DNA of 33,991 bases from an uncultured Bacilli bacterium (GCA_947626215.1 CANQRJ010000001.1:1-33991), one strand, 5' to 3'; shown: positions 13,620-30,132, counted from the first letter of the stretch. The notes: generated from the letters alone by a model not told the origin. A program made the numbers and translations.

Positions 13620-14276
13620 ATGGCTTTTGTTTACAATCCAGAGTCTGTTAAATCTTGGTCTAACAGTCTGGTAAAAAGTATTAATGGAGAGGAAGATAGT
13701 GTTTCTAGTTGTACTAGAAAGTTTTCTGAATTAATGAGTGAACTTGTAAAACCTGCAGTATGGACTGGATCTGCGGCTTATCAAAATTATCAAAATTTTT
13801 TAGAAACTCACAATGCTTTAGTGGCTTTCTCTAATGAATTTGGTGAGGCTTTTGCAACCACTATGAATGAAGTTGCTAAAAATGTTGCAGGATTAGAAGT
13901 TGCTAATTTAGGAACGGATACTAATGTTGCTACTACTTTTGGAGAACTTAGTTTTAATCAATTATCTCAAATGGCAGCCGAAAATATAAACAAAGAATTA
14001 GTTACTTATGATTATGAAGTAATAAGTAGCATCGGAAATTCTTTAAAGCAAATTAAAGAAGTTTTGGATGGAGTAAAAGTTAATTTGCTTTCAACTATTA
14101 ATCGTTTAAATAGTGGAGAAGGAATTTGGGATGGCGATGCGGCAGAAAGCGCAAAGACAACTTTATCAAACACTGCTAATACTAATATGACTAAAATTTA
14201 TAGTAACTTAGACATTTGTATTAGTAATATTTCTGAAGCTGCTATCGCGGCACAAAATGCAGATAAAGGAATGTAA
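13620..14276 (+). CDS. Tandem (fused) double WXG100-like protein, putative T7SS substrate
   Basis: 218 aa, about twice the WXG100 length. Two W-x-G motifs are each embedded in helical context: VWTGSAA (W48, nt 13761-13769) and IWDGDAA (W170, nt 14127-14135). Strong SD AAAGGAGG. First gene of the T7SS operon. Confidence 0.7.
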   Translation: MAFVYNPESVKSWSNSLVKSINGEEDSVSSCTRKFSELMSELVKPAVWTGSAAYQNYQNFLETHNALVAFSNEFGEAFATTMNEVAKNVAGLEVANLGTDTNVATTFGELSFNQLSQMAAENINKELVTYDYEVISSIGNSLKQIKEVLDGVKVNLLSTINRLNSGEGIWDGDAAESAKTTLSNTANTNMTKIYSNLDICISNISEAAIAAQNADKGM

Positions 14277-14317
14277 AAGTTTCTTTTTTAAAGAAAAGAT
14301 TTGAGAGTATTATTCTC

Positions 14318-14346
14318 TTTCTTTTCTTTTTTTTGTGTGTTATAAT
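14318..14346 (+). promoter_or_regulatory. Candidate extended -10 promoter upstream of essC
   Basis: TGtTATAAT at 14338-14346 with a weak -35 TTTCTT 17 nt upstream. It lies in the 95-nt gap after the double-WXG gene. Confidence 0.4.
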
Positions 14347-14371
14347 TTCTATAGAATAAGAGGGAAGTGAT

Positions 14372-17300
14372 TTGATGAAGTTACTTATTTTTTTAGAATC
14401 AACTAGAACTTATCAAATATTCTCTTTACCAACTGTTATTGATGGAAATTATTGGGTTCATATTTTAGATGAAAATGGTCAAATTAAAAACATTTTAAAT
14501 GTGTATGCTTTAGATGGACGTTGGGTTTATCAAGAAAATGGTCAAATTATTCCTTTGGAAGTTTATCGATTTTATTCTATTTCTTTTAAAGAAAAAATGT
14601 TATCTATTTATACATTACCTTTATATAATTCTAATTTGGAAATTTTTTTCTTTAAACAAATGAATCAATTTTGTTTAGGAAAAAAAGATTCTGATATTCT
14701 TTATGAAGATTATAATGGAGTTCTTACTTTTACAAAGAAGAATGAAAAATGGATTATGCAGTGCGATAAACCTGAAAATGCTATTTATGTAAATCAAAAA
14801 TTAACTTCTGGAAAATTATTGGAAACCGGAGATCATTTATTTGTTCATGGATTAAATTTATATGTTTTAGGTTCATTTTTTGCAATAGATAATCCGAATC
14901 AAAAACGAAAAATTATTTCTTCTACTATTCAATTGGTTCAAGTTCCTATGTTAAAAGAATCTTTAGATGATGATTTGGATGTTCTAAGTATATATGATAA
15001 AAAAGATTATTTTTATCGTTCTCCTAGATTTCGAAATGTTATAAATGAAGTTTCTGTGGTTATAGATGCTCCACCAAATAGTTCTATTAGGGAAGAGATG
15101 CCTTTTTTACTTCAAATGGGATCTATGCTTACCATGGGTATGAGTTCTATGGTAACTTTATTTGTTTCTGTAAGTGGAATTGTTAGTGGTGAAAAAACGA
15201 TTCAAAATACTTGGCCTAGTTTAGTTATAGGTGTTTCTATGATGGTAGGTATGTTATGCATTCCATTGTTTACGAAACGTTATCAGAAAAAACAATCTTT
15301 AAAAAATGAAAAAATTCGACAAGAAAAATATTTAGAATATTTAGCATTGAAAAAGAAAGAAATTTATCAAGTAATTGAAGATCAACAACAAGCTTTTAAT
15401 GCGAATAGTGTATCATTAGAACAATGTGAAGACATTATATTACATCATAGAAGAAATTTATGGGAAAGAAAGATTGAACATGATGATTTTTTAAGTGCTC
15501 ATATTGGAATTGGTGAAATACCTGCCAAAATTAAAATTCAGTTTCCAGAGGAACATTTTTCTTTAGATAATGATAATTTAAAAGCAGAAGTTCAAAAAAT
15601 GGCAAAAGAACCAAGAACTCTTAAAAATGTTCCAATTAATGTTTCATTTGTTCAAAAAAATATATGTGCTATTTTAGGAAACTTTGAATTAATTCCTTCT
15701 TTTTTGAATACCATTTTATTGCAATTTATTGCTTTTCAATCTTATGAAGATGTGAAATTTGTAATTTTTACTACTAAAGATTCTAAAGAAAAATGGGAAA
15801 GTTTTAAAAAAATTCCTTATTTATGGAATAATGAGAAGACTTTTCGATATTATGGAGAAACAAAAGAAGATATTTTTTCAATCTGTACTTTATTAAATGA
15901 AGAATTTCAAAATCGTGCGATGAATGAAGATACAAAATCTACGGATAAAGATTATAAAAATTTTTTACCTTATTATGTCATTATTACTGATAATTTTGAA
16001 GAAATAAGAGATTTTGATTTTATTAAAAATGTTTTAAAGTCGAAAGTAAATTATGGATTTAGTTTTCTTATTATTAATGAGCGACTAATGGGATTACCTA
16101 ATGAATGTAATTCTTTTATTAATGTAGATGCAAATCAATCAGGTATGATTGAAAATGAGTTATCATCAGATCGCCAACAAGTTTTTCAAGCAGAGTTTTT
16201 AAATAAATCCTTAGATCCATTGTTTCAAGAAATTTGTAATATTCCTATTGAGTTTACGAAATCAAAAGGGAACATGCCCGAAAGTATTAGTTTTTTGGAA
16301 TTATATAATGTTGGAAAAGTAGAACAGTTAAATGCTTTGAATCGATGGAAAACAAATCATTCTTATGAAACATTAAAAGCTCCTGTTGGAGTAGATCAAA
16401 ATGGGGGACTTTTCTTTTTGGATTTACATGAAAAGGCTCATGGGCCACATGGTCTTATAGCAGGGATGACAGGTTCTGGTAAATCTGAATTTATTATTAC
16501 CTATATTTTATCTATGGCACTTAATTATCATCCATATGATGTTTCTTTTGTACTTATTGATTATAAGGGTGGTGGACTTGCAGGTGCTTTTGAAAATAAA
16601 GATTTAGGAATTAAACTTCCTCATTTAGCAGGGACTATTACCAATTTGGATACGGTAGAAATTGGTCGTAGTTTAGCTTCTATTGAAAGTGAATTAAAAA
16701 GAAGACAAAAGTTATTTAATGAAGCAAGAGAACAAACGAATGAAAGCACGATTAATATTTATAAATATCAAAAATTATATCATCAAGGAATTGTAAAAAC
16801 TCCTGTACCACATTTGTTTATTATTAGTGATGAATTTGCAGAGTTAAAAAGTCAACAACCAGAATTTATGGCTCAGTTAATTTCTACGGCTAGAATAGGT
16901 CGTTCTTTAGGAGTTCATTTAATTTTAGCAACTCAAAAACCAAGTGGAGTAGTCGATGCTCAGATATGGAGTAATTCTAAATTTCGTGTTTGTTTAAAAG
17001 TTCAAGATCGTAGTGACAGTATGGATATGATTAAGGTTCCTGATGCGGCGGCTTTATCTACCGTTGGAAGGTTTTATTTACAAGTTGGATATAATGAATT
17101 TTTTGCAATGGGACAATCTGCTTGGGCAGGAGCTCCATATTATGAAATGGATGAAAGAAAAACAAAGATTGATTCATCGATTCATTTTGTAGATAATGTG
17201 GGGAAAGTAATTAAGTCTGTAGAACAGGAAAATCAAAAAATGAAATCATCTTTTAAAGGTGAGGAATTACCAGCTATTTTAAAATATATTTCTGATTTAG

Positions 17301-18931
17301 CTAAAAAAGAGCAGATTCATGTGGATCCTTTATGGCTTTCTAGTATTCCTGAATTTATTACGATTGGGACTTTGGAGAAAAAATATAGTTATAAAAGTAT
17401 TCCTTTTGTTTTGAATGAAGTAATTGGTGAATATGATTCTCCTTCTACACAAAGTCAACATTTACTTACTCTTCCTATTTCAAAAGATGGTAATGTTTTA
17501 CTTTATGGTGCAAGTGGAAGTGGAAAAGAAAACTTTCTTACAACTTTTATACTTTCAACTATTTTACATCATACTCCAGAAGAAGTTCAGTTTTATTTAT
17601 TAGATTTTGGAGCAGAAACCCTTACAATGTTTCAGGATGCTCCTCATGTTGGAGATGTCGTTTTTTCTTCTGATAATGAAAAAGTAACCAATTTATTTAA
17701 AATGATTAATGAAATGGTACAAACTCGTAAATCAAAATTTATGAATTTTGGTGGTACTTTTGAATCTTATAATGCTAAAAATGATAAAAAAGAAGCTAAT
17801 GTAATTATCGTTTTAAATAATTATGAGAATTTTAAAGAATTATATGAAAATTTTGAAGAAGATTTGATTTCTCTTACTAGAGAAGCTACAAAATATGGTA
17901 TTTATTTTATTTTAAGTGTTTTGAGTTCTAATAGTATTCGTATTAAATTGTTTCAAAACTTTAAATCGATTTATTCTTTACAATTAAACAATGAAGATGA
18001 ATATACAAATATTTTAGGAAATGTACATAAAACTTTTCCTTCTAAGAAATTTGGTAGGGGCATTACTCGCATACAAGGAGAAATTTATGAATTTCAAACG
18101 GCTTATGTATGTGAAAAAGAACATATTGTAGACACTGTCCGAGATTTTTGTTTAAAACTTAAAAAATATTATTCTAGTTACGCTAAAAAAATACCAGTGT
18201 TGCCTCAAAAAGTTACTTATTCTGCTCTTTCACCAATACAATATTCTTTGGAAGATTTTGTAGTGGGTGTAGAAAAAGATTCTTTAGAATTATCTAGATG
18301 TAATTTTAAATCTAAAACAGTTTCTTTTGTTACGGCTTTAGAATTAGATAATTTAGAAAATTTTACTTACGGATTAATTGATTTCTTTCAACCTTTATCT
18401 AATCATTTACTATATGTCTTAGATATGGGTTCTTCTCTTGATCCTAGAAAAGTTCATTCTAAATATTACTATTCTAAAAAAGTTTCTGATGTATATCAAA
18501 GTGTCTGCGATTATATTGATAAACTAGCTCTTGATTTTGCAAATAATCAAAAAGATGAACAACGATTAGAAAAGTATACCCATTTAACTCTTATTATTTA
18601 TGGTATTGAAGACTTTTTCAAACTTATAAAAGAAAATATGGAAAAATTTGAAAAGTTGTTACAAAATGGTCATGATCTAGAAAAATTAAATATTATTTTA
18701 GTCGATGCAAGTTACTCCATTAAGAAATATGAAATGGATTCATGGTATCGTAATTTTGTGATGAGCAATCATGGTATTTGGGTAGGAAGTGGTATTACGG
18801 AGCAATTTGTTTTAAAACTTGCTAAAACTCCAAAATATTGTTATGAAGAAATTTCAAATCAATATGGTTATGTTGTCAAAAATGGAGTGCCTGTTCTTGT
18901 AAAATTATTAGAAGGTGATAAGAGTGAATAA
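14372..18931 (+). CDS. essC: Type VII secretion FtsK/SpoIIIE-family ATPase EssC/YukB
   Basis: 1519 aa. FHA-like N-terminus, two TM helices (about aa 245-305), D1 Walker A GMTGSGKSE (nt 16463-16486) with Walker B LFIISDEFAEL, D2 Walker A GASGSGKE (nt 17507-17530). No GxxGxGK[ST] is recognisable in the last ~300 aa (degenerate D3). ATG 14375 is an equally likely start (TTG 14372 in the track). Confidence 0.93.
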   Translation: MMKLLIFLESTRTYQIFSLPTVIDGNYWVHILDENGQIKNILNVYALDGRWVYQENGQIIPLEVYRFYSISFKEKMLSIYTLPLYNSNLEIFFFKQMNQFCLGKKDSDILYEDYNGVLTFTKKNEKWIMQCDKPENAIYVNQKLTSGKLLETGDHLFVHGLNLYVLGSFFAIDNPNQKRKIISSTIQLVQVPMLKESLDDDLDVLSIYDKKDYFYRSPRFRNVINEVSVVIDAPPNSSIREEMPFLLQMGSMLTMGMSSMVTLFVSVSGIVSGEKTIQNTWPSLVIGVSMMVGMLCIPLFTKRYQKKQSLKNEKIRQEKYLEYLALKKKEIYQVIEDQQQAFNANSVSLEQCEDIILHHRRNLWERKIEHDDFLSAHIGIGEIPAKIKIQFPEEHFSLDNDNLKAEVQKMAKEPRTLKNVPINVSFVQKNICAILGNFELIPSFLNTILLQFIAFQSYEDVKFVIFTTKDSKEKWESFKKIPYLWNNEKTFRYYGETKEDIFSICTLLNEEFQNRAMNEDTKSTDKDYKNFLPYYVIITDNFEEIRDFDFIKNVLKSKVNYGFSFLIINERLMGLPNECNSFINVDANQSGMIENELSSDRQQVFQAEFLNKSLDPLFQEICNIPIEFTKSKGNMPESISFLELYNVGKVEQLNALNRWKTNHSYETLKAPVGVDQNGGLFFLDLHEKAHGPHGLIAGMTGSGKSEFIITYILSMALNYHPYDVSFVLIDYKGGGLAGAFENKDLGIKLPHLAGTITNLDTVEIGRSLASIESELKRRQKLFNEAREQTNESTINIYKYQKLYHQGIVKTPVPHLFIISDEFAELKSQQPEFMAQLISTARIGRSLGVHLILATQKPSGVVDAQIWSNSKFRVCLKVQDRSDSMDMIKVPDAAALSTVGRFYLQVGYNEFFAMGQSAWAGAPYYEMDERKTKIDSSIHFVDNVGKVIKSVEQENQKMKSSFKGEELPAILKYISDLAKKEQIHVDPLWLSSIPEFITIGTLEKKYSYKSIPFVLNEVIGEYDSPSTQSQHLLTLPISKDGNVLLYGASGSGKENFLTTFILSTILHHTPEEVQFYLLDFGAETLTMFQDAPHVGDVVFSSDNEKVTNLFKMINEMVQTRKSKFMNFGGTFESYNAKNDKKEANVIIVLNNYENFKELYENFEEDLISLTREATKYGIYFILSVLSSNSIRIKLFQNFKSIYSLQLNNEDEYTNILGNVHKTFPSKKFGRGITRIQGEIYEFQTAYVCEKEHIVDTVRDFCLKLKKYYSSYAKKIPVLPQKVTYSALSPIQYSLEDFVVGVEKDSLELSRCNFKSKTVSFVTALELDNLENFTYGLIDFFQPLSNHLLYVLDMGSSLDPRKVHSKYYYSKKVSDVYQSVCDYIDKLALDFANNQKDEQRLEKYTHLTLIIYGIEDFFKLIKENMEKFEKLLQNGHDLEKLNIILVDASYSIKKYEMDSWYRNFVMSNHGIWVGSGITEQFVLKLAKTPKYCYEEISNQYGYVVKNGVPVLVKLLEGDKSE

Positions 18932-19175
18932 GGTTTTAGTTTCTATTTATGTGATTAAATTAGATCAGGAGTATGAAATATTTTTGCCACCTAATAAAAA
19001 AATTGTTGATGTTATTTGTATGATTGCAAAATCAGTTCATGAAATAAGTAATGAAGTGTTTCCTTTAAATTATCAAAATTTGTTATATGATTGTGAACAA
19101 AATATTTTTTATGATCCTCAAAAATCGGTGAAAGAGGCCGGCTTAAAAAATGGAAAACGATTGATTTTCTTTTAG
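18924..19175 (+). CDS. esaB: YukD/EsaB-like ubiquitin-fold T7SS accessory protein
   Basis: About 83 aa, overlapping the essC stop. SD AGGTGA lies 5 nt before GTG 18924 (the track starts at GTG 18915). Small beta-grasp-like sequence ending GLKNGKRLIFF, in the conserved position after essC. Confidence 0.6.
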   Translation: MNKVLVSIYVIKLDQEYEIFLPPNKKIVDVICMIAKSVHEISNEVFPLNYQNLLYDCEQNIFYDPQKSVKEAGLKNGKRLIFF

Positions 19176-19208
19176 TTTCATGTTATCTTTATAAGGGAGA
19201 ATCGAAAT

Positions 19209-19511
19209 ATGGACATTAAAATAGATGAAGTAGAAATGAAAAATTTAAGTAGTAATATTCATAGACAGGCCGAAAGTATTCGAAAACTTTGTCAGTCTTT
19301 AAATTCTGTTACTACTTCTCTTACACCTTATTGGAAAGGCGAGACTTTTGTTCAATTTTCTTCTAAAGTAATTGGTGATAGTGATTCTTATCAAGCGAAT
19401 CTTACGAAATTTTCTAAAGAGTTGGACGATATTGCGACGTATATGGAACAATCTATTGCTCTTTATGAAAAAATGGATTCTACGTATCATTCTAAAAAGA
19501 TAGATTTGTAG
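19209..19511 (+). CDS. WXG100 family protein (EsxA-like)
   Basis: 100 aa, helical, with central YWKGETFVQF (W-x-G at aa 42-44) as in EsxA NWEGQAFSRF. Confidence 0.8.
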   Translation: MDIKIDEVEMKNLSSNIHRQAESIRKLCQSLNSVTTSLTPYWKGETFVQFSSKVIGDSDSYQANLTKFSKELDDIATYMEQSIALYEKMDSTYHSKKIDL

Positions 19512-19519
19512 GTGAGATT

Positions 19520-19816
19520 ATGGATTTTTTTGATTATAATTATGTAGAAAATGCTTTATTGGAGTATCAATCTTTAAAAAATCAATTAGAACAAATTTTA
19601 GATATTTTAGAAAATCTTGAGAAACAGTTAAGTGAAGAACTTTATTGGTCTGGTGTTGGTTGTGATTTTGTAAAACAAAAATATTCTTCTTTACTTCATA
19701 ATGCATCCGATTTAAGAAGTGCAATGACTAATTTATGTGCATATGTTTCAGGTGTGATTGAAAATCATCGATTAAGTGAAGAAAAGATTGCTAGTTTGTT
19801 TGGAGGTTTTTCATGA
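19520..19816 (+). CDS. WXG100-like small helical protein (possible Lap1/DUF3130-type effector targeting factor)
   Basis: 98 aa, helical, with YWSGVG (W-x-G at aa 43-45). It starts 8 nt after the preceding gene and lies upstream of the giant substrate. Confidence 0.6.
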   Translation: MDFFDYNYVENALLEYQSLKNQLEQILDILENLEKQLSEELYWSGVGCDFVKQKYSSLLHNASDLRSAMTNLCAYVSGVIENHRLSEEKIASLFGGFS

Positions 19817-20205
19817 ATGATGTGGATGCAGATCGTCTAATAGAAAGTCTTACTTTGATGAAAGAGTCTCTTACAACTTCTATGGAAGAAAGTATTTTAA
19901 AAGAGATTCAAGATTCTCAGTCTTTTCAGGTTCAAGCGGCTAGTGTTTTAATTTCTGCAAATCAAAATTTGATATCTAAATATGAAGATTTAAGACAATT
20001 AATTCAAAAATATATTGGTGTTGGAAATGATATAAAAAGTTACCAAAATTTGGATAAAGAAGTTGCCAGACTAGAAAGAGCCATTGATAGGGAATTAAGT
20101 GAAGATGAACCAAGTTATAGTTATATTCGTTCTTTAAGAAATAAAGTTCGTTCTTGTGAAAAACAAATGAGAGAATTAAAGTTAAAAATAGAATCTAGTA
20201 TTTAA
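19813..20205 (+). CDS. Small coiled-coil protein (possible Lap2-type effector adaptor)
   Basis: 130 aa, all-helical and charged, with no W-x-G. ATGA overlap with the upstream gene. It sits immediately 5' of the giant substrate gene, as LXG-associated helical proteins do. Confidence 0.4.
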   Translation: MNDVDADRLIESLTLMKESLTTSMEESILKEIQDSQSFQVQAASVLISANQNLISKYEDLRQLIQKYIGVGNDIKSYQNLDKEVARLERAIDRELSEDEPSYSYIRSLRNKVRSCEKQMRELKLKIESSI

Positions 20206-20221
20206 ACAATAGGAGGTATTT

Positions 20222-23200
20222 ATGAAAATTATTCATTATAATTATTTAAATAATTCTTATAAAAATTTTGTAAATGCCTCTAGAAGTTTTGAAACAGATA
20301 AGTATTCTAAGTTTTCCAATAGTTATGTTACTACGTGTTCTAATGTCTATGTTTCTAGGATGAAGTCTGTTTTATCTAATAAGTATAAAGAAATGCTTGA
20401 AGCTTATCAAAAAATTGATGAGTGGTGGCTTCATTATCTTAATGATGTTCGTGCGGTTGAAAATGCAATTTCTCAAAGTTTCTATGGCTTTGAAGAATCT
20501 TCTCTTGCTTCTTTTGTTGGTGGTAAACTTTTGAATCCTACTGTTACAAAAACATCATTATCTGGCAAATTAACGCTTGCTACAGTGAATTCTGAACTCT
20601 ATTCTAACGCTTTTATGAGTATGGGTTCTGCTAGTCCTTTTTTAGCACAGTCCATGTTTGAACAGAAAGTTTTGTTTTCTAAACAAGAAAAAGAAATGAT
20701 TTTAAATAAATTTTTTAATGGATCTAATTTAACGGCAAGTGAAGTCAATAAAATTCAAAGTACTCTTACTCATATGTATGATGAAGACATGCAAAAAGCA
20801 AATCAAAAGTGTGAAGCATCTCAAACAAAATATAATGATATGGCTAAGGTATTTTCTAAATTAACGGGTTCATCTTTTGACATAGATAAAATGAAATCTT
20901 TAAAAAGTGAAGCTCAACAAGAGGCTCTTCGTATGGCAAAAGAGTATAAAAGTAAATCTTTTAGGTGGAATGATTTTGATTTTGATGAAAAAGGAATTCA
21001 TTTAACTAGAGATCAATTTGAAAAAATGTCTGTGACAGAGTTAAGTGAAGTTCTTTTGAAAAATGATATGACTATCGGAACTCAATATAAACGTTTCAAT
21101 TCGATTTTAAGTGGTACACAGTATGGCAGTTTAGAAAATTTTTTGAAAAAAATGTCTACTCTTCAAGATAATTATTCTAAAGATTTAGAGGCAAAAAATA
21201 AAATTGAGGCTCAAGTGAAAGGATTGTCCTATGCTTTAATGAGCCAGACAGAAGATTATAAGAATTTTAAACCTAAAAGTGTTTCTAAAGATGGTATAAC
21301 AGATGTCACGACTGTTATTCAAAATGATCAAAATATTGCTACTCAACAAACGATTGTAGATTATTCTAAGTATGTGAAAACTTATGGGGAAGTGGATCCT
21401 CTTAGTTTTACCTCTCTAGCAATGCAAATGTATGGAGACAGTATTGAAGTACAAGGGGTAACCAATCCTGAATTATTAAAAGAACTTGCTAAAGTTCAAG
21501 GAATTCAAAGTTTAAGTGATATGGGTAAATATTATCAATTTGCTTATCAAAATTTTGGCTCAGAAAAAGCAAATAAATATCTTACAGACTATGAAAGTGA
21601 AATTCATCAATACTGTGGAGAAGTCAATGCAAATGAGTTTTTAAATCATTTATCTAGTTTAAATGAAGTAAATAGAGTTGAGGCCGTGACCAATCATTTA
21701 AAGGTTACTGGAAAAGGTTTATCTGAAGGTATGATGGGATTTTTTTCAAATTTGGGATATCTTTTAGAAAGTCCTTTAGAGGAAAATCGTACTGTGAGTG
21801 CAAAAGAATATGAAAATATGTATATCGTTCAGGCATTGTCTAGTAAAGAATCAAAAATGAAAAATGGTCTTCTTACGAAAAATTTAAAGGGAGATGTTTT
21901 TAGCACATCTGATATTATTGATTATACAAAAGATTATGGAGCTTTAACGGAACATAATTACCAAATTAGTGAGTCGATTGGAAATATGTTACCTAGCATT
22001 GCCGTTTCGGCTATTAATCCTTTTGTAGGATCTCTTGCTTTGGGAGCGAGCGCGGCAGGAGGTTCTTATCACAGTGCAATGACGGAAGGGTATTCTGTTC
22101 AAAAGTCTATGTTATATGGGGTTGCATCCGGTGCAAGTGAAGTCTTAATGGAGAAGGCATTAGGAGGTTTACCATTATTAAGTGATACGAAAGTAGTTAG
22201 TTTAAAAACTATGGCTCAAGCTATGGGTAAAGAATTTAATGAAGAATTTATTCAAACTTATGTCGATGCAGGTGCAAGTTCTCTTATTTTACAAAAAGAT
22301 TTTGATTTAGCAAGTACTTCAAAAGAAGCTTTACAATCTGGGATTTATGGGGGTATTACAGGTGGAATCATGAATCTTCCTAGCTTAGCTATTAATAGTA
22401 GTAGTATTAAAATGATTGATAATCAGATAAAAGCTGGTAAAGTTTCTCAAGAAGAAATTGTTCAAAGTTTTCATGAATTAATTCCAGAAACACAACAAAT
22501 GAATTATGATGAAATTTTGCAAGAATATACAACTACGGCAAAAGATGTTACTTTAAGTCTTGTACAAGCTAACGGTAAAACAGTAGCCTCTTCTGGAGTA
22601 AGTACTTTATTAGGAAATATGCTTAAAAATTCTCAAAATGCTTTGCATGTAAAAATGAATCAAATAAGGGATAAAAATATTGTTTCACTTAATTTAAATC
22701 CTATTCAAAATTTAGAACCTGCTTTTGTTGGAGTTCAAAATATTACTGACGTGGAGCAAGTTATTGTAAATAATTCTGATGTGAATAAATTATTAGGGAA
22801 GACTGCTTTGTCTTCTTTACCAAAGGCAGTTGTTGGTATCGCGACTTCATTTGCATCTAGGCCATTTTTCTTTCGATATACGCCAGTTACAACGTCTAAT
22901 AGTTTTTCTCAGAAAATATTAAATGAAGGATTATATCATTTTACAAGTGAAAAAAGTATTTCTAAAATTCAAGAATCTGGATATATAAAAGCCTCTGATT
23001 ATTTTACTTCGTATGGAAATAAAAAAAGTTTTTTCTTTGCAGGTATTCCTGATATAGAAGATGTTGCTATGAATACAAGTAGTTTGGCTGATAAACGAGT
23101 AGCTGTCAAATTGAAAATAGATCCAAGTGAATTACAACAGTTTCGTTATAGAGATTTAGTAGATAAGGCTGTTTCTCATGATGGAAATTATGTATTTAAT

Positions 23201-26200
23201 CCAGATCATTTTTCAATTGCTTACTTAGGGCTTGCTGAAGAAAATGGAAAAGTAGTTTATAAAGAAATATCAAAATCAGAGTATGATCAATATCAGTCTA
23301 ATGTATCTAAGGCAAAAAAAGAGTCTTTAGTGAAGAAAGCGGAGACGTTTATTATAGGGGTTGCTTCGGACTGGACATATACAAAAAATAGATTTCAAAG
23401 AATAGCAAGTGCCTTTAAAAATACAAATATTGATAAAACGGGAGCAATCTATGCTAATAGTACATCAATGCTTTTAGAGAATATTCAACAATTTAATTTA
23501 GAAGATACCTTAGATTTAGAAGAAGAAGGTCTCCCAATTAGAGATTCAGATCATTTTACTAATTTAGAAGATACCCTAGATTTAGAAGAAGAAGGCCTTC
23601 CAATTAGAGATTCAGATCAAATTACAAATTTAGAAGATACCCTAGATTTGGAAGAAGAAGGTCTTCCAATTAGAGATTTAGACCAATTTACAAATTTAGA
23701 AGATACCCTAGATTTGGAAGAAGAAGGTCTTCCAATTAGAGATTCAGATCAATTTACAAATTTAGAAGATACTCTAGATTTAGAAGAAGAAGGCCTTCCA
23801 ATTAGAGATCCAGATCGAATTACAAACTTAGAAGATACTTTAGATATGGAAGAAGAAGGTCTTCCAATTAGAGATTCAGATCAAATTACAAACTTAGAAG
23901 ATACTTTAGATATGGAAGAAGAAGGTCTTCCAATTAGAGATTCAGATCAAATTACAAATTCAGAGTCGTTAATAACTAATAGAGAAAAAGCTATATTTAA
24001 AAATGATGAGTTGTTATCTACTTCGAAGTTTTTAGAATTATCTCTGGAAAATAAAAAAGAATATATTCAACGTGCAAGTATTGGGCAAATTAATGAATTA
24101 ATATCGTCTGATATTTCTTATGATGATGAAACAAGTCAATTATTTTATACAAAAATATTTCATAATCAGGAAGAGATTTTTTATGATAAAATTTTTGGAA
24201 AAGAAAAATATTCTAATATTGAAAAATATGTTTGTAAACATCCAGAATTATATTCTGATTTACATGATGAATCTTTAATAACATTAATCGATCATAATTC
24301 TAAAAATACAGATTTACTAAATGAATTATATAGACGTATTGATGAAGGTTCTCCTATTTTTATGAAAAATTATGAAGTAGAGGAATTTTATGGAAGGAAA
24401 AGAAGAATTATTGGTAGTGTATTTAATGCTATGTCACAAGAATATCAAAAAAAGGTAAGAGATTCTATCATTGAATTATCAAAAAAGATTTCTCCTGATT
24501 TAAAGAAATTAAGTTTAAGTGGTTATGATATGTTTGATCAAGCTCAATTCTTTTATGCTCTTCAAAACAATACAATAGATGAAGTTGGTATTCAATTTTT
24601 AAATAAATTGTGTTCTGAAAATAAATATAAATTTAAAGGAATGAATTATTCCTTGCTTAATTCTTCTTACTTAAATGATTTAGGAGAAGATTTTGTAAAA
24701 TCTATTATTAATAAAGCTACTTTAGCTAATCAAATTGTTTATTTGCATAATTACAATCCTAGTTTATATCAAGCTTTTGTTAAGTTTGTTCAAAATAGCT
24801 ATTCTGATAATTCATTATATACATTTTATCCGAAAGTTACAAACATGCTATCTTTTTTTATTAAAAATGAACATGCTTTAGTAAATTTAGATTCAAAATT
24901 ATTATTAAGTGATTCTTTTACAAATTATGTATTATATCTTGCATCAAATGCTTATTCAAATTCAATAAAGTTATCTGCATTTTCATCTGATTATAATACA
25001 AAATTTTATGAATTATGTGATGATAAATTTTTAAATTTATATCTAAATTCGTTTACAGATGTCAACGATTTGAAAAAGATTTTTTATAATAAATATTTTT
25101 CAAGTGATGTTTTAAATATTAAATCTTTTATTACTAAATATGAAACTAGTCTAGATTCTATTTCAAAATATGATGAAGAAAGTGTTGCTATTATAAAATA
25201 TTTAAAATTTATTGAATCTATAAATGATAAAGAAACATTAAAAAATTTATATGACGAGTGTAATATTCGAATTTCTTCAGAAGAACTTTTATATATTGAT
25301 GATGCTTTAAGGAAAGCTTACGTAAAAACCTATATTGAAAGTTTAGAAAAAACTAATCATACTATAGAGTCTTTAATAAAATCTGGTCAAAATACTTCTA
25401 CAATTAATTTTGAGGGTAAAAATGTTACGGTTGTTGATGTTGGTAATCAGTTTTCTTTTATAGTTCGTAGTAGTGATTCTGGACTTGTTACGAATGGATT
25501 AGAACATGTATCTTCTTATAAAGATGCTTATTTTCAAGCGGATGATCCAACTAATCATATATTGGCGGCTACCTATATAAATGAAAGAAATATTGGAAGT
25601 TGCCCGGTTAATAATGAAGGCGTTTTATATGGCTTTACTAAGTTGAATGACTCTCAAATAGTTATGATGGCACCTAATGATATTAATTCTAATATTAATA
25701 GTGTAGGATATTCTTCTGGGGCAAATCAACGTTTTGTTACGGCTGATGATATGTCTAGTTATACAAGAAGAATTTATAATGAAGTAGATTTAGAAAAAAA
25801 TGGAACTTTACCGGATTATGTTATTATATATAATGATTCTACTGATACACAGATTCAAAGTGCTTATAAAGCGGCTATAGAATGGAATATTCCAGTAATA
25901 CGCATTGATAAAGTTGATGTGGCTACTCATCAGTCCAATTTTATTAATTCTCTTATGGAAAATTTTAAGGAAACAAAGGATGTATCTTATTTAGATCAAG
26001 CTTTGGACTTATATGAATCTAATTGTAGTGGATATAAATTTAATTCTTTTGTAAAAGAAGGAAATGAAGATCGAACAAGTGGAATTAATAATCAAACTAT
26101 TTATGATTTAGGACTATTTAATTCTGTTACTATTGAGGATGATATTTTGGATTATATTCATGAATTAACGACGATGGATTCTAATCAAAAAGAAGTGGAT

Positions 26201-26338
26201 GAATTAATAAAAGTACTTGATAATGTTAAATATAAATATGATTTAGCAAACGAATCAAATAACAATTTATTGGCTAATACTAAATCGAATTTAGATTTAG
26301 AGTCTTTAGAAGCCATATTAGAAGAAATTAGGAGGTAA
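20222..26338 (+). CDS. Giant (2038 aa) multi-domain putative T7SS substrate / polymorphic-toxin-like protein with non-canonical LXG-like N-terminus
   Basis: Uninterrupted 6.1-kb ORF with SD AGGAGG and no signal peptide. It has a helical N-terminus and lies in the operon behind essC, WXG and adaptor-like genes. Internal Gly/Ala/Ser-rich segment at aa 588-726, LYHFTSE..I.ESG signature at aa 904-920, 7x22-aa acidic repeats at aa 1092-1245, and unassigned C-terminal domains. Confidence 0.6.
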   Translation: MKIIHYNYLNNSYKNFVNASRSFETDKYSKFSNSYVTTCSNVYVSRMKSVLSNKYKEMLEAYQKIDEWWLHYLNDVRAVENAISQSFYGFEESSLASFVGGKLLNPTVTKTSLSGKLTLATVNSELYSNAFMSMGSASPFLAQSMFEQKVLFSKQEKEMILNKFFNGSNLTASEVNKIQSTLTHMYDEDMQKANQKCEASQTKYNDMAKVFSKLTGSSFDIDKMKSLKSEAQQEALRMAKEYKSKSFRWNDFDFDEKGIHLTRDQFEKMSVTELSEVLLKNDMTIGTQYKRFNSILSGTQYGSLENFLKKMSTLQDNYSKDLEAKNKIEAQVKGLSYALMSQTEDYKNFKPKSVSKDGITDVTTVIQNDQNIATQQTIVDYSKYVKTYGEVDPLSFTSLAMQMYGDSIEVQGVTNPELLKELAKVQGIQSLSDMGKYYQFAYQNFGSEKANKYLTDYESEIHQYCGEVNANEFLNHLSSLNEVNRVEAVTNHLKVTGKGLSEGMMGFFSNLGYLLESPLEENRTVSAKEYENMYIVQALSSKESKMKNGLLTKNLKGDVFSTSDIIDYTKDYGALTEHNYQISESIGNMLPSIAVSAINPFVGSLALGASAAGGSYHSAMTEGYSVQKSMLYGVASGASEVLMEKALGGLPLLSDTKVVSLKTMAQAMGKEFNEEFIQTYVDAGASSLILQKDFDLASTSKEALQSGIYGGITGGIMNLPSLAINSSSIKMIDNQIKAGKVSQEEIVQSFHELIPETQQMNYDEILQEYTTTAKDVTLSLVQANGKTVASSGVSTLLGNMLKNSQNALHVKMNQIRDKNIVSLNLNPIQNLEPAFVGVQNITDVEQVIVNNSDVNKLLGKTALSSLPKAVVGIATSFASRPFFFRYTPVTTSNSFSQKILNEGLYHFTSEKSISKIQESGYIKASDYFTSYGNKKSFFFAGIPDIEDVAMNTSSLADKRVAVKLKIDPSELQQFRYRDLVDKAVSHDGNYVFNPDHFSIAYLGLAEENGKVVYKEISKSEYDQYQSNVSKAKKESLVKKAETFIIGVASDWTYTKNRFQRIASAFKNTNIDKTGAIYANSTSMLLENIQQFNLEDTLDLEEEGLPIRDSDHFTNLEDTLDLEEEGLPIRDSDQITNLEDTLDLEEEGLPIRDLDQFTNLEDTLDLEEEGLPIRDSDQFTNLEDTLDLEEEGLPIRDPDRITNLEDTLDMEEEGLPIRDSDQITNLEDTLDMEEEGLPIRDSDQITNSESLITNREKAIFKNDELLSTSKFLELSLENKKEYIQRASIGQINELISSDISYDDETSQLFYTKIFHNQEEIFYDKIFGKEKYSNIEKYVCKHPELYSDLHDESLITLIDHNSKNTDLLNELYRRIDEGSPIFMKNYEVEEFYGRKRRIIGSVFNAMSQEYQKKVRDSIIELSKKISPDLKKLSLSGYDMFDQAQFFYALQNNTIDEVGIQFLNKLCSENKYKFKGMNYSLLNSSYLNDLGEDFVKSIINKATLANQIVYLHNYNPSLYQAFVKFVQNSYSDNSLYTFYPKVTNMLSFFIKNEHALVNLDSKLLLSDSFTNYVLYLASNAYSNSIKLSAFSSDYNTKFYELCDDKFLNLYLNSFTDVNDLKKIFYNKYFSSDVLNIKSFITKYETSLDSISKYDEESVAIIKYLKFIESINDKETLKNLYDECNIRISSEELLYIDDALRKAYVKTYIESLEKTNHTIESLIKSGQNTSTINFEGKNVTVVDVGNQFSFIVRSSDSGLVTNGLEHVSSYKDAYFQADDPTNHILAATYINERNIGSCPVNNEGVLYGFTKLNDSQIVMMAPNDINSNINSVGYSSGANQRFVTADDMSSYTRRIYNEVDLEKNGTLPDYVIIYNDSTDTQIQSAYKAAIEWNIPVIRIDKVDVATHQSNFINSLMENFKETKDVSYLDQALDLYESNCSGYKFNSFVKEGNEDRTSGINNQTIYDLGLFNSVTIEDDILDYIHELTTMDSNQKEVDELIKVLDNVKYKYDLANESNNNLLANTKSNLDLESLEAILEEIRR
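23495..23956 (+). repeat. Seven tandem in-frame 66-bp repeats encoding NLEDTLD[LM]EEEGLPIRDSDQ[IF]T
   Basis: Read directly from the sequence. Units start at 23495 with period 66. Units 6 and 7 are identical and the others differ at a few mostly synonymous positions. Confidence 0.98.
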
Positions 26339-26718: not shown

Positions 26719-27030
26719 ATGAAAAAAATATTATCAATTGGAAGTGTTGTTCTTTTAAAAGGAGGTACAAAAAAGGTTATGATTATTGGTTATTTTGGAG
26801 TAAGCAATGAACACCAAAACCAAATGTATGACTATAGTGGGTGTGTTTATCCTGAAGGCCTTTTAGATAGTGAACAGACATTGTTATTTAATGATGATCA
26901 AATTCAAGAAGTTTGTTTTGAGGGATATGCTTCTGATGAACAAAAGGAGTTTTTTCAAAAATTAAATCAATTTTATCAATCTTTAGAAAATGATGATATT
27001 GAGTTATTAGATACGGATGAACAAGATTAA
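26719..27030 (+). CDS. DUF4176-family protein (T7SS-locus-associated)
   Basis: 103 aa. LSIGSVVLLKGGTKKVMIIGY...YDYSGCVYPEGL...FNDDQIQEVCFEGY matches the DUF4176 pattern. SD AAAGGAG. Confidence 0.7.
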   Translation: MKKILSIGSVVLLKGGTKKVMIIGYFGVSNEHQNQMYDYSGCVYPEGLLDSEQTLLFNDDQIQEVCFEGYASDEQKEFFQKLNQFYQSLENDDIELLDTDEQD

Positions 27031-27039
27031 AATATAATT

Positions 27040-27774
27040 TTATTTTAATTTTTTTTCAGGTTTTATATCTTCTGGTTTAAATCCACAAGCAATGAATAGA
27101 TTTAATATTCGACTAATTTGAAATATATCTCCATGACCTTCAAAGATAGTTCTTGGTATAACCATAATTTTTTTATCTTCTAAAATAAATATGACTGTGA
27201 TTTGATCATATTCTTTTCTTGGTAGTTTTAATACTTCTATATAGTTTTCCCAAAAATAAGAGTTACTCTTTTTTAATTTTATAATTAGGTATTGTGCAAA
27301 CCACATGCCATCTTGCCTTAAATCTTTTAAAAACTCTAATTGCATATATAAATACGAATAAAGAAATTCGTCATATTCTGTAAATTCATAAAAAGAATAT
27401 ACTTCTCTAAATCTATTAGGAGTACGTCTGCTAAAATAGGTTTGTGTTCTCGCAAAGATAACTTTATTTGGTATATTAGGAAGACTTATTATATCTAAGT
27501 TTAAATTAGCAATTTTTTCATATAATGAATCATTAATTAAAAATTTTTGAGCTTGTGGAAAATAATACATTTTAGATTTTCCAATGTTTTTTTCAAAAGG
27601 TATGTTATATAACATTATTCCTGGGATAATCATAAGTAGTAAACCGAGTAATCTAATAGTAAAGATGTATGGATCTAAGTTTGATTGAATGTATGCAAGC
27701 ATTACAAAAAGAATCATCAGTAAAAACGTAATAATGAATAAAATTTTACAAATATTATATCTTTTCTTTTTCAC
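27040..27774 (-). CDS. Hypothetical membrane protein (2 N-terminal TM helices plus ~170-aa soluble domain)
   Basis: 244 aa. Hydrophobic segments ILFIITFLLMILFVMLAYI and LLGLLLMIIPGIMLY. Convergent with the DUF4176 gene, with 9 nt between the stops. No family recognised. Confidence 0.5.
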   Translation of the reverse strand: MKKKRYNICKILFIITFLLMILFVMLAYIQSNLDPYIFTIRLLGLLLMIIPGIMLYNIPFEKNIGKSKMYYFPQAQKFLINDSLYEKIANLNLDIISLPNIPNKVIFARTQTYFSRRTPNRFREVYSFYEFTEYDEFLYSYLYMQLEFLKDLRQDGMWFAQYLIIKLKKSNSYFWENYIEVLKLPRKEYDQITVIFILEDKKIMVIPRTIFEGHGDIFQISRILNLFIACGFKPEDIKPEKKLK

Positions 27775-27882
27775 TCAAACGTATTCTCCTAATTTTTTTT
27801 AATATTTTTATGTTGTTATATATCAAGTATAACACCGTGTTAGTTTTGCTTTCAAGTATAGATTTCTTTTTAAAAGATCTTT

Positions 27883-27900
27883 AAGTGTAACTATTCAGAC
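27883..27900 (+). repeat. Copy 1 of the recurring AAGT(G)TAACTATTC(AGAC) motif
   Basis: AAGTGTAACTATTCAGAC. The 14-mer GTAACTATTCAGAC is identical to 33917-33930, and the 13-mer AAGTGTAACTATT is the exact reverse complement of 29298-29310. Confidence 0.85.
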
Positions 27901-27914
27901 TAAGACATATTAAG

Positions 27915-27974
27915 ATTAATTTCCTTTTTTTCCTAACTCCACCTTGCTACTGCAATAACTTTGCAATTCGCCAT
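27915..27974 (-). pseudogene. Possible relic of a ParA/Soj-type P-loop ATPase N-terminus
   Basis: The minus strand reads MANCKVIAVA, then after a 1-nt frame slip GGVRKK (compare KVIAVAnqKGGVGKT). It is truncated at the repeated GAATAGTTAC motif. Only about 20 codons remain, so the call is weak. Confidence 0.25.
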
Positions 27975-28033
27975 GTCTTTTCTTCTTTTTTTTCTAGATA
28001 ACTATACTTAAATAAAATATAGCTATGTATGGC

Positions 28034-28062
28034 AAAAAAAAGAACTGAATTTTTTTCAGTTC
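28034..28062 (-). terminator. Rho-independent terminator (minus strand)
   Basis: 8-bp stem GAACTGAA/TTCAGTTC with a 5-nt loop. A run of A8 on the plus strand (28034-28041) gives U8 after the hairpin on the minus-strand transcript. Confidence 0.55.
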
Positions 28063-28271
28063 GTTGTTATGTTTCATTAGTTAAAATTATCAATTTTAGT
28101 TACTTAAGGTGCGTCACCTACTTCTTTTTTATCATAAACTTTTGAGAATTTTTGGCGATTTTTATCATTTTTTGAGTTTTTAAGAAAAACAAAATATTAC
28201 GTTTTTCCCCTATTTTATGGGCTTTTTTAGGTTGTTACTTAAGAATACATCAGTATTTACTGATATTTACT

Positions 28272-28283
28272 AAGTAACTATTC
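28272..28283 (+). repeat. Copy 2 of the motif (AAGTAACTATTC)
   Basis: It lies 3 nt beyond the stop of the recombinase relic. Confidence 0.7.
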
Positions 28284-28286
28284 GAT

Positions 28287-28680
28287 TTAATATAACCTAA
28301 TTTTTTTAGGTTCTCCTAACCCAAACTTAAAGGACAACTTTAATGTATGATCTTTATAAACAATAATTTTATCTATTAGTTCTCGAATAACATTGTTCAC
28401 ACATTCATATTATTTATAAATGCCATTATATTTTTCAAGCAAATATATTTTTATACTTTCCATATTTTTTGATTCTTCAAGTTTTTTTAATAATATTTCC
28501 GATTTTTCTTTTAACTCAGTTTCTTTTTCTTTCATTAACATAAATTCATCTAAACTAATTTCTTCAAATGTTTTTTTAAATATAGATTTCTAATATTAGT
28601 ATTATGCAATTTAATATCTTCTTTTAAATTTGTAATTTTCACATTATTCTTTCATTATTTAATATATCTTTTGTTGCAAT
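28287..28680 (-). pseudogene. Degraded C-terminal fragment of a (large) serine recombinase
   Basis: Minus-strand translation gives IATKDILNNE, then a coiled-coil KTFEEISLDEFMLMKEKETELKEKSEILLKKLEE...YK*YECVNNVIRELIDKIIVYKDHTLKLSFKFGLGE. This resembles recombinase C-terminal tails. It is interrupted by stops and frameshifts, and no catalytic N-terminal domain is present. Confidence 0.45.
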
Positions 28681-28696
28681 GGAAACAATATCATAT

Positions 28697-28915
28697 TTAT
28701 CGACATATATCCGTTTTTGTGGTTTTGCCATCAGATCCATGTTCTACTATTGATCCCTTTCCAGTATCTGTATTAATGTTAATATGAATAGTTGAATGAT
28801 CTTTTTCAGATGGATTTTTATCATATACTGAATATGATGCATTACTTTCGTTCCCTGTCATTTTTGAATAATGACCATCATCGTGTTTGTAACCATACTT
28901 ATCTTTTTCACTCAT
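28697..28915 (-). CDS. Hypothetical small hydrophilic protein (72 aa, His/Asp/Lys/Gly/Thr-rich)
   Basis: ORF only. Its ATG directly abuts the TAA of the upstream ORF in the same frame. No family recognised. Confidence 0.35.
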   Translation of the reverse strand: MSEKDKYGYKHDDGHYSKMTGNESNASYSVYDKNPSEKDHSTIHININTDTGKGSIVEHGSDGKTTKTDICR

Positions 28916-29236
28916 TTATAATTTTCCCTCTTTGACTTTTTGCTCTAACATAAATTCAAACGCATAAAATTCATTACTAATGTGATCAGTTAGTTCAGAA
29001 AATGTATTATCTATATTTAGTTGATAAATAATTTTTGATATCATTTTAACTTTTTCCAAATCTATTTTTTCCTCAAGTTTCATTTTTAGTTCAACAATAC
29101 AATTTTCTAAAAAAACGATATCAACATGCTCTAAATTATATTTATTTGTTTTTTTTATTAAAGCAATATCATTAATTATATTTTCTAAATGCTCTAACAC
29201 ATCATTACCTTCTTTCTTAAAGAATATTATATACAT
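28916..29236 (-). CDS. Hypothetical helical protein (106 aa)
   Basis: ORF only. All-helical and acidic. Immediately followed by the 72-aa ORF (TAA-ATG). Confidence 0.35.
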   Translation of the reverse strand: MYIIFFKKEGNDVLEHLENIINDIALIKKTNKYNLEHVDIVFLENCIVELKMKLEEKIDLEKVKMISKIIYQLNIDNTFSELTDHISNEFYAFEFMLEQKVKEGKL

Positions 29237-29297
29237 AAAATTTACTCATATAAACATAAATTCGATTTTATACTATATTTTTAATTATCACCTTTAA

Positions 29298-29310
29298 AAT
29301 AGTTACACTT
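29298..29310 (-). repeat. Copy 3 of the motif, inverted (AATAGTTACACTT on the plus strand)
   Basis: Exact inverted match to 27883-27895. Confidence 0.8.
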
Positions 29311-29316
29311 GTAGTT

Positions 29317-29343
29317 TTCATTTGTTATAACATAACAAATGAA
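29317..29343. promoter_or_regulatory. Perfect 12-bp inverted repeat (candidate operator or hairpin)
   Basis: TTCATTTGTTAT-aac-ATAACAAATGAA, about 80 nt upstream of the 106-aa ORF start and downstream of the Fic-like gene. It is followed by TTTTTCTTT on the plus strand. Confidence 0.4.
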
Positions 29344-29454
29344 TTTTTCTTTAACTTTCTAAATAGTTATAACATTTAATATTACCTACATAAGTTTCCT
29401 TTTTAAATAATCTTAAACAAAAATATGTGCATCTTTTTTCACCTCATATAATAT

Positions 29455-30132
29455 TTATTTTTTATTATTTAAGTCAATACCATCAATGCTAGTTTTATAA
29501 ATCCATTCTTTTAAATCAGAATTATTTCCTGTTTCATAAAACTTAATTAATTTTTCAAAAAAAGTTGGTTGATTTTCTTGAGAAATTGTTATGATTCCAC
29601 AACCATGATCAATCATTATTTTATTTGCAAATAGCATAGCAACTCTTTTGTTGCCATCAATAAACATTTGTTTTCTCATAATTCATAGCATGATCTCAAT
29701 AGCTACTTCAGTTTTAGTTTTTTCCTGTTGATTTAATAATTCTTGTAGTTCTTCTTTAATTTGACTTTCAATTGGAAACATTGGTTTCCATGAAGTTCCA
29801 CCAATATTTACAGGTGTGCTTCTTAATTTTCCTAAATTTTGTTCTAACACTAACTTATCACAAGTTAATTTGTGTAAATGACATAATAGCTTAAAATCAT
29901 AATCAATGCTTTCATTTTCTAATATAAATTGCCAAGAGTATTTTAAATTGTTGATGGCAATTATTTTATCAACAGTTAGTCCATTTACAATACCACCATC
30001 ATATATAGCTTGTATTTCTGAGCATGTAACATCAATACCTTCTAAATTAGCACTTTTCCAAATATAATCTACAATATTTCTTTTTGCTATAAATATGTTT
30101 TGTTCTCTTGTTAGATTAAATTTATTTTTCAT
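29455..30132 (-). pseudogene. Fic/Doc-family gene interrupted by an in-frame TGA, with a degenerate active-site motif
   Basis: Two same-frame ORFs separated by TGA (29683-29685): ...TEVAIEIML*IMRKQMFIDGNKRVAMLFANKIMIDHG. QMFIDGNKR aligns to the Doc-type HxFxD[GA]NKR motif with His replaced by Gln. The likely start is ATG 30132 (MKNKFNL) behind AAGGA. Confidence 0.6.

Follow-up and report, generated by a model that had tools for sequence, protein, structure and literature searches.

A compact type VII secretion locus of uncultured gut Bacilli in which EssC is probably the only membrane component

Type VII secretion systems (T7SSs) that operate without EssA, EssB and EsaA are already on record in Bacillota. 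Garrett, Higginson and Palmer reported seven such variants in 2024 and defined the types T7SSc–j (PMC11217815), and Bacillus anthracis secretes the WXG100 protein EsxB without any of the three membrane proteins (PMC11217815). The components listed for these types differ: T7SSc has a kinase, a phosphatase, a vWA protein and an EspG-like protein; T7SSd, e and j have a kinase and a large immunoglobulin-like (Ig-like) protein; T7SSf has a phosphatase, an FHA protein and an AAA+ protein; T7SSg has a DUF5050 propeller; and T7SSh and i have an EspG-like protein together with a kinase-like protein (PMC11217815). A review of July 2026 lists T7SSa–j only (PMC13492133). The locus considered here lies on a 33,991-bp contig of a fragmented metagenome-assembled genome (MAG) from an uncultured Bacilli bacterium (GCA_947626215.1, CANQRJ010000001.1; the whole contig is referred to as the window, and positions are counted from its first nucleotide). 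It encodes the ATPase EssC, a ubiquitin-like protein resembling YukD/EsaB and WXG100 proteins, and it probably represents an undescribed, most-reduced T7SS variant with EssC as its sole membrane part.

A first reading of this DNA, made from the sequence alone, had remarked on the missing partner genes and offered two explanations: either the partners are encoded elsewhere, or the architecture is EssC-only, which was held to be mechanistically new for Firmicutes. The latter phrase was overstated, as T7SSc–j and the B. anthracis precedent had already been published (PMC11217815). What stays new is that no further conserved component accompanies the core, whereas each of T7SSc–j has at least one. 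Literature searches on RF39, CAG-417, fused WXG100 proteins and 'minimal' T7SS returned no prior description of the layout; the survey of Garrett et al. used RefSeq and would presumably miss most of a lineage represented by MAGs only. The reading put forward here, to which a probability of about 0.6 is assigned, is that of a self-contained, compact type VII module with EssC as the only membrane-embedded machine component, carried by an uncultured lineage of walled, spore-forming gut Bacilli.

EssC and its ubiquitin-like neighbour

EssC of the window scored 988.7 bits against the NCBIfam model TIGR03928 (T7_EssCb_Firm, cut-off 778.4) and matched PF01580 with E = 8.4e-51. The protein is laid out as degenerate N-terminal FHA domains, two transmembrane (TM) helices, a stalk/DUF region and FtsK/SpoIIIE-type ATPase domains. 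The TM helices, placed by hydropathy scan at residues 253-271 and 283-301, are only ~11 residues apart, and consequently EssC has essentially no extracellular part. No other TM protein was found on the operon strand, so that the initial view of EssC as the sole clear TM protein of this block was borne out for that strand. When the N-terminal EssC profile of the clade was compared with the chain of B. subtilis YukB solved by cryo-electron microscopy (cryo-EM; 9qks), the two aligned from FHA2 through the DUF with E = 1.1e-40, which indicates that the channel-forming and YukD-holding parts are present. In that structure a central channel of ~13 Å is formed by YukB via lateral DUF and stalk contacts, and YukD sits in a grip made up of the FHA domains, the DUF and an ATPase domain 1 hairpin of YukB (bioRxiv 10.1101/2025.01.24.634720). 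Pfam FHA gave no match for the window EssC itself; relatives do carry FHA or Yop-YscD_cpl matches, and positions 110-180 of the clade profile match the FHA proteins GarA and Rv1827. The Walker A motif of the first ATPase domain (D1) is intact (GMTGSGKS at residue 697). A second P-loop, at residues ~1033-1041, reads GASGSGKE, with Lys-Glu in place of Lys-Ser/Thr, and the clade consensus at this point is GSAGSGKE; a canonical Walker A is found in D1 only.

The TIGR03928 threshold was passed, but the label T7SSb, under which the locus had originally been filed, is not secure, as EssC shares 32-33% identity with canonical T7SSb EssCs and with the FHA-less EssC of Brevibacillus alike. Percent identity is thus uninformative on T7SSb versus other types, and 'T7SSb' denotes a resemblance here rather than a demonstrated membership.

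Translation of essC most likely starts at the ATG at 14375, since the ribosome-binding site GAGGGAAG precedes it by 7 nt and P0001, the copy in the database, has 1518 aa. In the gap between essC and the preceding double-WXG gene an extended -10-like element, TGTTATAAT, was recognised by eye, from which the two genes may be transcribed separately; a consensus scan for promoters and terminators gave no difference from shuffles in this DNA of 28% GC.

The gene that runs across the essC stop codon most likely begins with the GTG at 18924, because this start gives MNKVLV as in all homologues, with GAAGGTGA upstream. The 8-nt overlap with the essC stop, in combination with GAAGGTGA just ahead of the start, suggests translational coupling. 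The encoded protein is one of a very large family that lacks annotation (2120 clusters at E ≤ 1e-3), and Pfam YukD (PF08817) matched 14 of 42 members, with a best E-value of 6.4e-5. Alignment of the family profile to a canonical EsaB alignment with hhalign gave E = 1.2e-4 over nearly the full length. The AlphaFold2 (AF2) model (predicted local distance difference test score, pLDDT, 90.3) displays a beta-grasp topology and was assigned by Foldseek to ubiquitin-like folds with a probability of 1.00. Among the matches were the ubiquitin-like (Ubl) domains of EccD in 7npt, 7b9f, 7b7j and 4kv2, with template-modelling scores of 0.68-0.75; the top query scores (0.73-0.75) belonged to mycobacterial EccD Ubl domains in ESX-5 structures, and the lowest E-values to other ubiquitin-like proteins. 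A sequence-only search of the PDB with the same profile returned nothing meaningful. As in YukD, a C-terminal Gly-Gly is lacking, and the protein ends in ...KRLIFF.

Search for EssA, EssB and EsaA and conservation of the locus

Searches with Pfam and NCBIfam models gave no match to YukC/EssB, EssA or EsaA, at E ≤ 0.1 for the island proteins and at E ≤ 0.01 for the other window open reading frames (ORFs) of at least 60 aa. The EssB/YukC pseudokinase was sought with PF10140 and NCBIfam in every window ORF without a match. Likewise, EsaA/YueB had no NCBIfam match in the window, and no large multi-TM ORF is conserved beside essC across the loci described below. EssA/YueC (PF10661) was found neither in the window nor among the true neighbours within a set of 93 TM-bearing representatives, and the operon holds no small TM ORF. 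The absence of the three partners, as read from the DNA at the outset, therefore extends over the whole 34-kb contig at the level of Pfam and NCBIfam, and the suggestion that one of the small ORFs might be a divergent EssA or EssB found no match with hidden Markov models (HMMs).

Species-representative genomes were scanned with the N-terminal EssC alignment, which yielded 80 loci; the same scan with a single protein yielded none. EssC relatives at 76%, about 62%, 55% and 44-48% identity all belong to uncultured 'Bacilli bacterium' MAGs. The 80 loci all derive from gut MAGs (rabbit, ruminants, chicken, humans), labelled Bacilli, Tenericutes or Mycoplasmatota or mislabelled, with Clostridium sp. 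CAG:417 and the circular chromosome OZ006981.1 (1.31 Mb, L041) among them. A YukD-like gene directly follows essC in 81 of 81 non-identical loci and WXG100-like genes lie nearby in 65, while every other neighbour family occurs in at most 29, reflecting local synteny (SpoIID, a CwlD-like amidase, tRNA synthetases). No membrane protein family is conserved next to essC across the 81 loci. The survey of relatives for the same compact layout, proposed together with the first reading, thus shows essC and the YukD-like gene kept throughout, with no partner gene within ~10 kb.

HMMs for EssB, EsaA and EssA were built from annotated loci of Listeria, B. mycoides and L. fermentum, in which esxA-esaA-essA-esaB-essB-essC are contiguous. 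Applied to 3287 ORFs (≥50 aa, six frames) from all loci, they produced zero matches at E ≤ 1. In leave-one-out tests the EssB and EsaA HMMs recovered the omitted order at E ≤ 1e-44. Pfam was also run on the 93 TM-bearing neighbour representatives with three Listeria controls (EssB, EsaA, EssA) spiked in, and reported YukC once and EssA once; as this equals the number of spiked controls for those families, the neighbours themselves have no YukC or EssA match. A Brevibacillus locus (L092) was considered as an independent positive control for EssB and EsaA and rejected, since it also lacks both, consistent with T7SSc.

These data bear on the first of the two original explanations, namely that the machine is of the usual T7SSb type, with EssB, EsaA and EssA, or distant homologues of them, encoded at an unlinked locus. 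Several points weigh against an EssC-only machine. EssC passes the T7_EssCb_Firm equivalog model, and in S. aureus and B. subtilis the three membrane partners are all essential (PMC11217815). The FHA domains are retained, and in B. subtilis these bind YukC as well as YukD, with YukC dimers placed peripherally on FHA2 (10.1101/2025.01.24.634720); a partner of EssC might thus still exist. The partner search in relatives covered ~10 kb around essC rather than whole genomes, and ORFs in the 81 loci were called by a simple longest-ORF method (TM helices were predicted with a hydropathy window). Finally, the EssA HMM is weak and failed one of three leave-one-out tests; EssA being short and poorly conserved, a divergent EssA-like protein is excluded mainly via the lack of a conserved small TM ORF. 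Conversely, the canonical Listeria, B. mycoides and L. fermentum loci have the partners directly beside essC, whereas in all 81 clade loci they are absent from the ~10 kb around it, the island content is constant at different junctions in close relatives, and at least one clade genome (L041) measures only 1.31 Mb. The comparative data consequently favour the EssC-only alternative, and unlinked partners are considered rather unlikely. It appears somewhat better than an even chance that the whole conserved machinery consists of EssC, WXG100 proteins and the YukD-like clamp, that the genomes of the 81 species-level representatives, some of them of only ~1.3 Mb, encode no further membrane subunit, and that this constitutes an eleventh architecture beyond T7SSa–j.

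The junctions of the island vary between close relatives: it is bordered by ksgA and yabG in the window and by metG and tatD in the 76% relative (L001), follows tatD in L013 and L016, and follows metG in L012. The same content at different junctions indicates that the island behaves as a self-contained module. Housekeeping genes bracket many loci on both sides. In L001 the order is metG, double-WXG, an insertion sequence (IS), essC, an 83-aa gene, WXG100, genes of 100, 130 and 1980 aa, ADP-ribosylglycohydrolase, a 73-aa gene, DUF4176 and tatD; L007 reads rplM-rpsI, 241 aa, essC, 84, 66 and 80 aa, followed by spoIID on the opposite strand; and in L002 essC and an 84-aa gene run straight into ftsY. 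The IS of L001, between the double-WXG gene and essC, encodes a DDE transposase, and in L012 the double-WXG gene is located downstream of essC. Neighbouring genes further include D-Ala-D-Ala carboxypeptidase, MreC, an amidase, SpoIIR and the germination protease. With such wall and spore genes in the neighbourhoods the hosts are taken to be walled spore-formers, and wall loss does not explain the missing wall-spanning EsaA.

From the degraded mobile-element and Fic-like fragments beside the island (27.8-30.2 kb) and from the IS in L001 it could be argued that the locus, having lost its partner genes, no longer functions and is in decay. However, intact essC ORFs of ~1500 aa were found in 86 of 88 loci, the yukD-like gene in 81 of 81, and Walker A is intact. 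Between the window and L001 the ratio of non-synonymous to synonymous substitution rates (dN/dS) was 0.11 for the double-WXG gene and 0.16 for both essC and the yukD-like gene, comparable to the housekeeping genes metG (0.165) and mfd (0.12); this core trio is under purifying selection like housekeeping genes. A remnant is accordingly regarded as extremely unlikely.

Two kinds of recurrent neighbour do not represent a conserved partner. Genes of ~220 aa, found upstream of essC in many loci and considered as one such partner, split into families with no relation to each other (the double-WXG protein, a CwlD-like amidase of the rpsI context and an M23-like protein; three in all), and a recurring 1032-aa upstream gene clusters with MetG-like class I tRNA synthetases and is thus housekeeping context. 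In the rplM-rpsI subclade (L007, 9130-9855; L024, L026, L031 and 7 other loci) a protein of ~240 aa is encoded directly upstream of essC. It carries a GNHCHIECG motif that by eye resembles M23/LytM peptidases, has no signal peptide and gave no Pfam match at 0.01; a wall hydrolase associated with the T7SS, comparable to EssH of S. aureus, is a possible identity. A 48% relative (L002, 7391-7849) encodes, upstream of essC, a 152-aa protein with WXG100 and LysM (peptidoglycan-binding) Pfam domains. A locus of the cultured Agathobacter rectalis (L091, NZ_CP143948.1, 4609-11854) comprises WXG100, EsaB/YukD, a separate FHA-domain protein and an FHA-less EssC, with an integrative element right after essC and EssA, EssB and EsaA not annotated within ~8 kb; it may represent a further layout without EssB, or one that has been disrupted.

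WXG100 proteins, effector module and island

The T7SS operon lies in a 16.8-kb island between ksgA and yabG, within a housekeeping and sporulation block that is Bacillus-like (Table 1). It reads double-WXG100, essC, the YukD-like gene across the essC stop, three small helical genes, the toxin candidate and DUF4176; the order and spacing first reported, with gaps of 95, 33, 8 and 16 nt and two overlaps, were reproduced by ORF analysis.

Table 1. Coordinates of features in the 33,991-bp window (GC ~28%).
Feature	Position	Strand	Product	Remarks
dnaX, ybaB, recR, bofA, holB, PSP1 gene, methyltransferase, pth, mfd, spoVT, metG, tatD, 178-aa gene, ksgA	ksgA ends 13511			upstream flank
Fused double-WXG100 gene	13620-14276	+	218 aa	
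Intergenic gap	14277-14374			95 nt to the ORF start at 14372
Extended -10-like element	14339-14347			by eye
Ribosome-binding site of essC	14360-14367			
essC	14375-18931	+	1518 aa	most likely start; longest ORF opens at 14372
Second P-loop of EssC	about 17470-17500			
YukD/EsaB-like gene	18924-19175	+	83 aa	most likely start; mechanical ORF 18915-19175, 86 aa
WXG100 gene	19209-19511	+	100 aa	33 nt after the YukD-like gene
WXG100-like helical gene	19520-19816	+	98 aa	8-nt gap before
Helical gene	19813-20205	+	130 aa	4-nt overlap with the 98-aa gene
Candidate T7 substrate gene	20222-26338	+	2038 aa	16-nt gap; same operon, beyond 13620-20205
Tandem repeat in the 2038-aa gene	23495-23964			66-nt unit
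DUF4176 gene	26719-27030	+	103 aa	
Two-TM protein	27040-27774	-	244 aa	convergent with the DUF4176 gene; no family match
ORF-poor, very AT-rich stretch	27775-30200	-		island edge
Apparent serine recombinase C-terminal remnant	28287-28400			
Split Fic/DOC-like fragments	29455-30171			
yabG, veg, spoVG, DUF4143 ATPase, yabP, yabQ	yabG starts 30366			downstream flank

The 218-aa protein contains two WxG motifs, W48-T-G50 and W170-D-G172, which lie 122 residues apart and are invariant in 20 homologues. Its AF2 model (pLDDT 78; predicted template-modelling score, pTM, 0.78) consists of two helix-turn-helix hairpins with a disordered linker at residues 90-107, and the two motifs and two hairpins together identify it as a fused tandem WXG100. 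The C-terminal half matched TIGR03930 (WXG100_ESAT6) at E = 2.1e-8, below the cut-off, and both halves gave weak PDB sequence matches to ESAT-6-like proteins. Foldseek of the model returned generic four-helix bundles only (E ≥ 0.047) and was uninformative, probably because the solved WXG100 chains are single hairpins. The family is small, with 21 database clusters and presence in 8 of the 81 loci. The protein is a candidate for the core component of TsxA/EsxA type, in effect a covalent EsxA-EsxB-like pair.

Of the three small helical proteins, the one of 100 aa is a bona fide WXG100 (PF06013, 32.5 bits, cut-off 27.3). It shares only 38% identity with its L001 counterpart at a dN/dS of 0.52, which suggests that it co-varies with the effector rather than with the core, and it probably acts as a Lap-like partner in targeting the toxin encoded downstream. 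The 98-aa protein is helical without a TM helix, shows 60% identity to its L001 counterpart and gave a faint ESAT6_2 match only (E = 0.057); from its position and size it is a probable second Lap-like partner. Similarly, the helical 130-aa protein, which has no Pfam or NCBIfam family match and no TM helix and is conserved in the closest relatives only (6 loci), is a probable third small partner of the toxin. Taken together, the three small genes and the toxin gene evolve faster than the core genes (dN/dS 0.30-0.52, window versus L001), as would fit effector-specific partners.

The 2038-aa protein is a candidate T7 substrate with a polymorphic-toxin layout: over the N-terminal 1075 aa it has 57% identity to its 1980-aa counterpart in L001, and the C-termini are unrelated. 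Between the conserved N-terminal part and the variable C-terminus lies a tandem repeat of 22 aa (NLEDTLDLEEEGLPIRDSDQIT), present in 7.1 in-frame copies that are 93% matching. Pfam LXG gave no match on residues 1-293 or on the whole protein, and membership of the LXG family is thus unproven. The protein of the DUF4176 gene scored 95.9 bits against PF13780, and DUF4176 was found in 20 of the 81 loci. LXG toxins are stabilised or chaperoned by DUF4176 proteins (PMC12482557), and the DUF4176 protein is a probable toxin chaperone here. A 'complete LXG module' has been defined as small helical partners, toxin, DUF4176 and immunity gene (PMC13492133), and the gene layout around the toxin candidate fits this definition.

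The 244-aa protein downstream of the DUF4176 gene has two N-terminal TM helices and is absent from L001, which has an ADP-ribosylglycohydrolase in that place; it is a candidate for conferring immunity to the giant toxin. As a two-TM protein without a family match just downstream of the operon, and with proteins of one to three TM helices late in the locus of some relatives, e.g. L004, it could also be thought to act as a non-homologous, variable membrane partner of EssC, a part that might otherwise be played by hydrophobic or Gly/Ala-rich segments of the substrate. However, such proteins are not conserved, L007 has no such gene, and a position after the toxin and DUF4176 suits immunity proteins, which makes a variable partner very improbable. 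The minus-strand stretch that follows, with its apparent recombinase remnant and split Fic/DOC-like fragments, is probably a decayed mobile element or an immunity-gene graveyard.

Proposed mechanism and comparison with known systems

We infer that EssC and the YukD-like protein could suffice for secretion and that the system is active. In the mechanism proposed, the channel for translocation would be built, as modelled for B. subtilis YukB, from the 12 TM helices of an EssC hexamer and its stalk/DUF regions. The YukD-like protein, translationally coupled to EssC, would be held between the FHA domains and the DUF of EssC and stabilise the assembly, and the hexamer with its clamp would constitute the whole membrane machine. 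The fused double-WXG100 protein would serve as the core factor of EsxA type. Binding of the three small helical proteins to the helical N-terminus of the 2038-aa toxin would create a composite signal for the C-terminal ATPase domain of EssC, with DUF4176 stabilising the toxin before export. If true, an EssC hexamer could be argued to be sufficient as channel and motor, the other subunits being lineage-specific scaffolds or wall-spanning add-ons, and the system would be a minimal natural T7SS and the smallest construct for reconstitution and cryo-EM. The finding touches the open questions of the pore composition of Gram-positive T7SSs and of what EssB, EsaA and EssA contribute; the sole T7SSb structure is without EsaA and EssA, and the route of effectors across the wall is likewise open (PMC13492133). 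It also indicates that surveys based on RefSeq overlooked a T7SS clade, one abundant in the gut metagenomes of animals and humans and equipped with very large candidate polymorphic toxins.

A locus of this kind could alternatively be a published variant among T7SSc–j, most plausibly T7SSg or one of the FHA-bearing T7SSf, i or j, whose extra parts lie off the contig or went unrecognised. The A/B/C core, Lap-like genes and LXG-like or Rhs substrates are shared features (PMC11217815). T7SSg of Acetivibrio and Paenibacillus (PMC11217815) is the simplest published type and likewise has few parts: two WXG100 units, a Ubl protein B and an ATPase C, without EssA, EssB and EsaA. However, TsgC is without the FHA region that is present here, the two WXG units are fused here, and neither the DUF5050 propeller (TsgL) nor the Tad pilus families, whose genes adjoin T7SSg, were matched by any window ORF. 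T7SSc of B. anthracis and Brevibacillus, a Firmicute T7SS likewise without EssA, EssB and EsaA, has been shown to export a WXG100 protein (PMC11217815) and sets the precedent that some lineages can dispense with these partners. It differs in that TscC has no FHA domain, and its membrane Ser/Thr kinase, PPM phosphatase, vWA protein and EspG-like chaperone were not found here. Similarly, for the markers of T7SSc, d, e and j, no kinase, PP2C, vWA or large signal-peptide protein was found among the window ORFs, and no large Ig-like protein was seen in the window. The T7SSf markers TsfF (PPM phosphatase), TsfJ (DUF6382-FHA) and TsfV (TadZ-like AAA+) are likewise missing from the window, and none of these marker families is conserved across the 81 loci. 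The markers of T7SSh and i (EspG-like TsxG, kinase-like TshM, LytR-type TsiN) gave no sequence match; EspG-like proteins are recognised mainly by fold (PMC11217815), and structural models covered two small proteins. Membership of a published T7SSc–j type is thus quite improbable.

In comparison with T7SSa/ESX of mycobacteria, EccB, EccD, EccE and MycP are missing, the Ubl is a free protein rather than a domain, EssC carries FHA domains, and the WXG100 proteins that form a pair in ESX are fused into one chain. The two resemble each other in the EccC-type ATPase, whose TM helices line the pore in ESX, and in a Ubl domain that contacts the EccC DUF. T7SSb, as represented by S. aureus Ess, B. subtilis Yuk/Yue and Listeria, differs from the present system in having EssB/YukC, EsaA/YueB and EssA/YueC, which are found neither in the window nor beside essC in the 81 relatives; in its gene order, A-EsaA-EssA-EsaB-EssB-EssC as against A-C-B here; and in the core WXG protein, which is a fused tandem in the window. 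Still, the likeness to T7SSb covers the machine and the effector genes alike: an EssC with FHA domains, two TM helices, stalk/DUF and FtsK domains, a free YukD/EsaB of ubiquitin fold and WXG100 proteins on the one hand, and an effector module of small helical partners, a large toxin and DUF4176 on the other.

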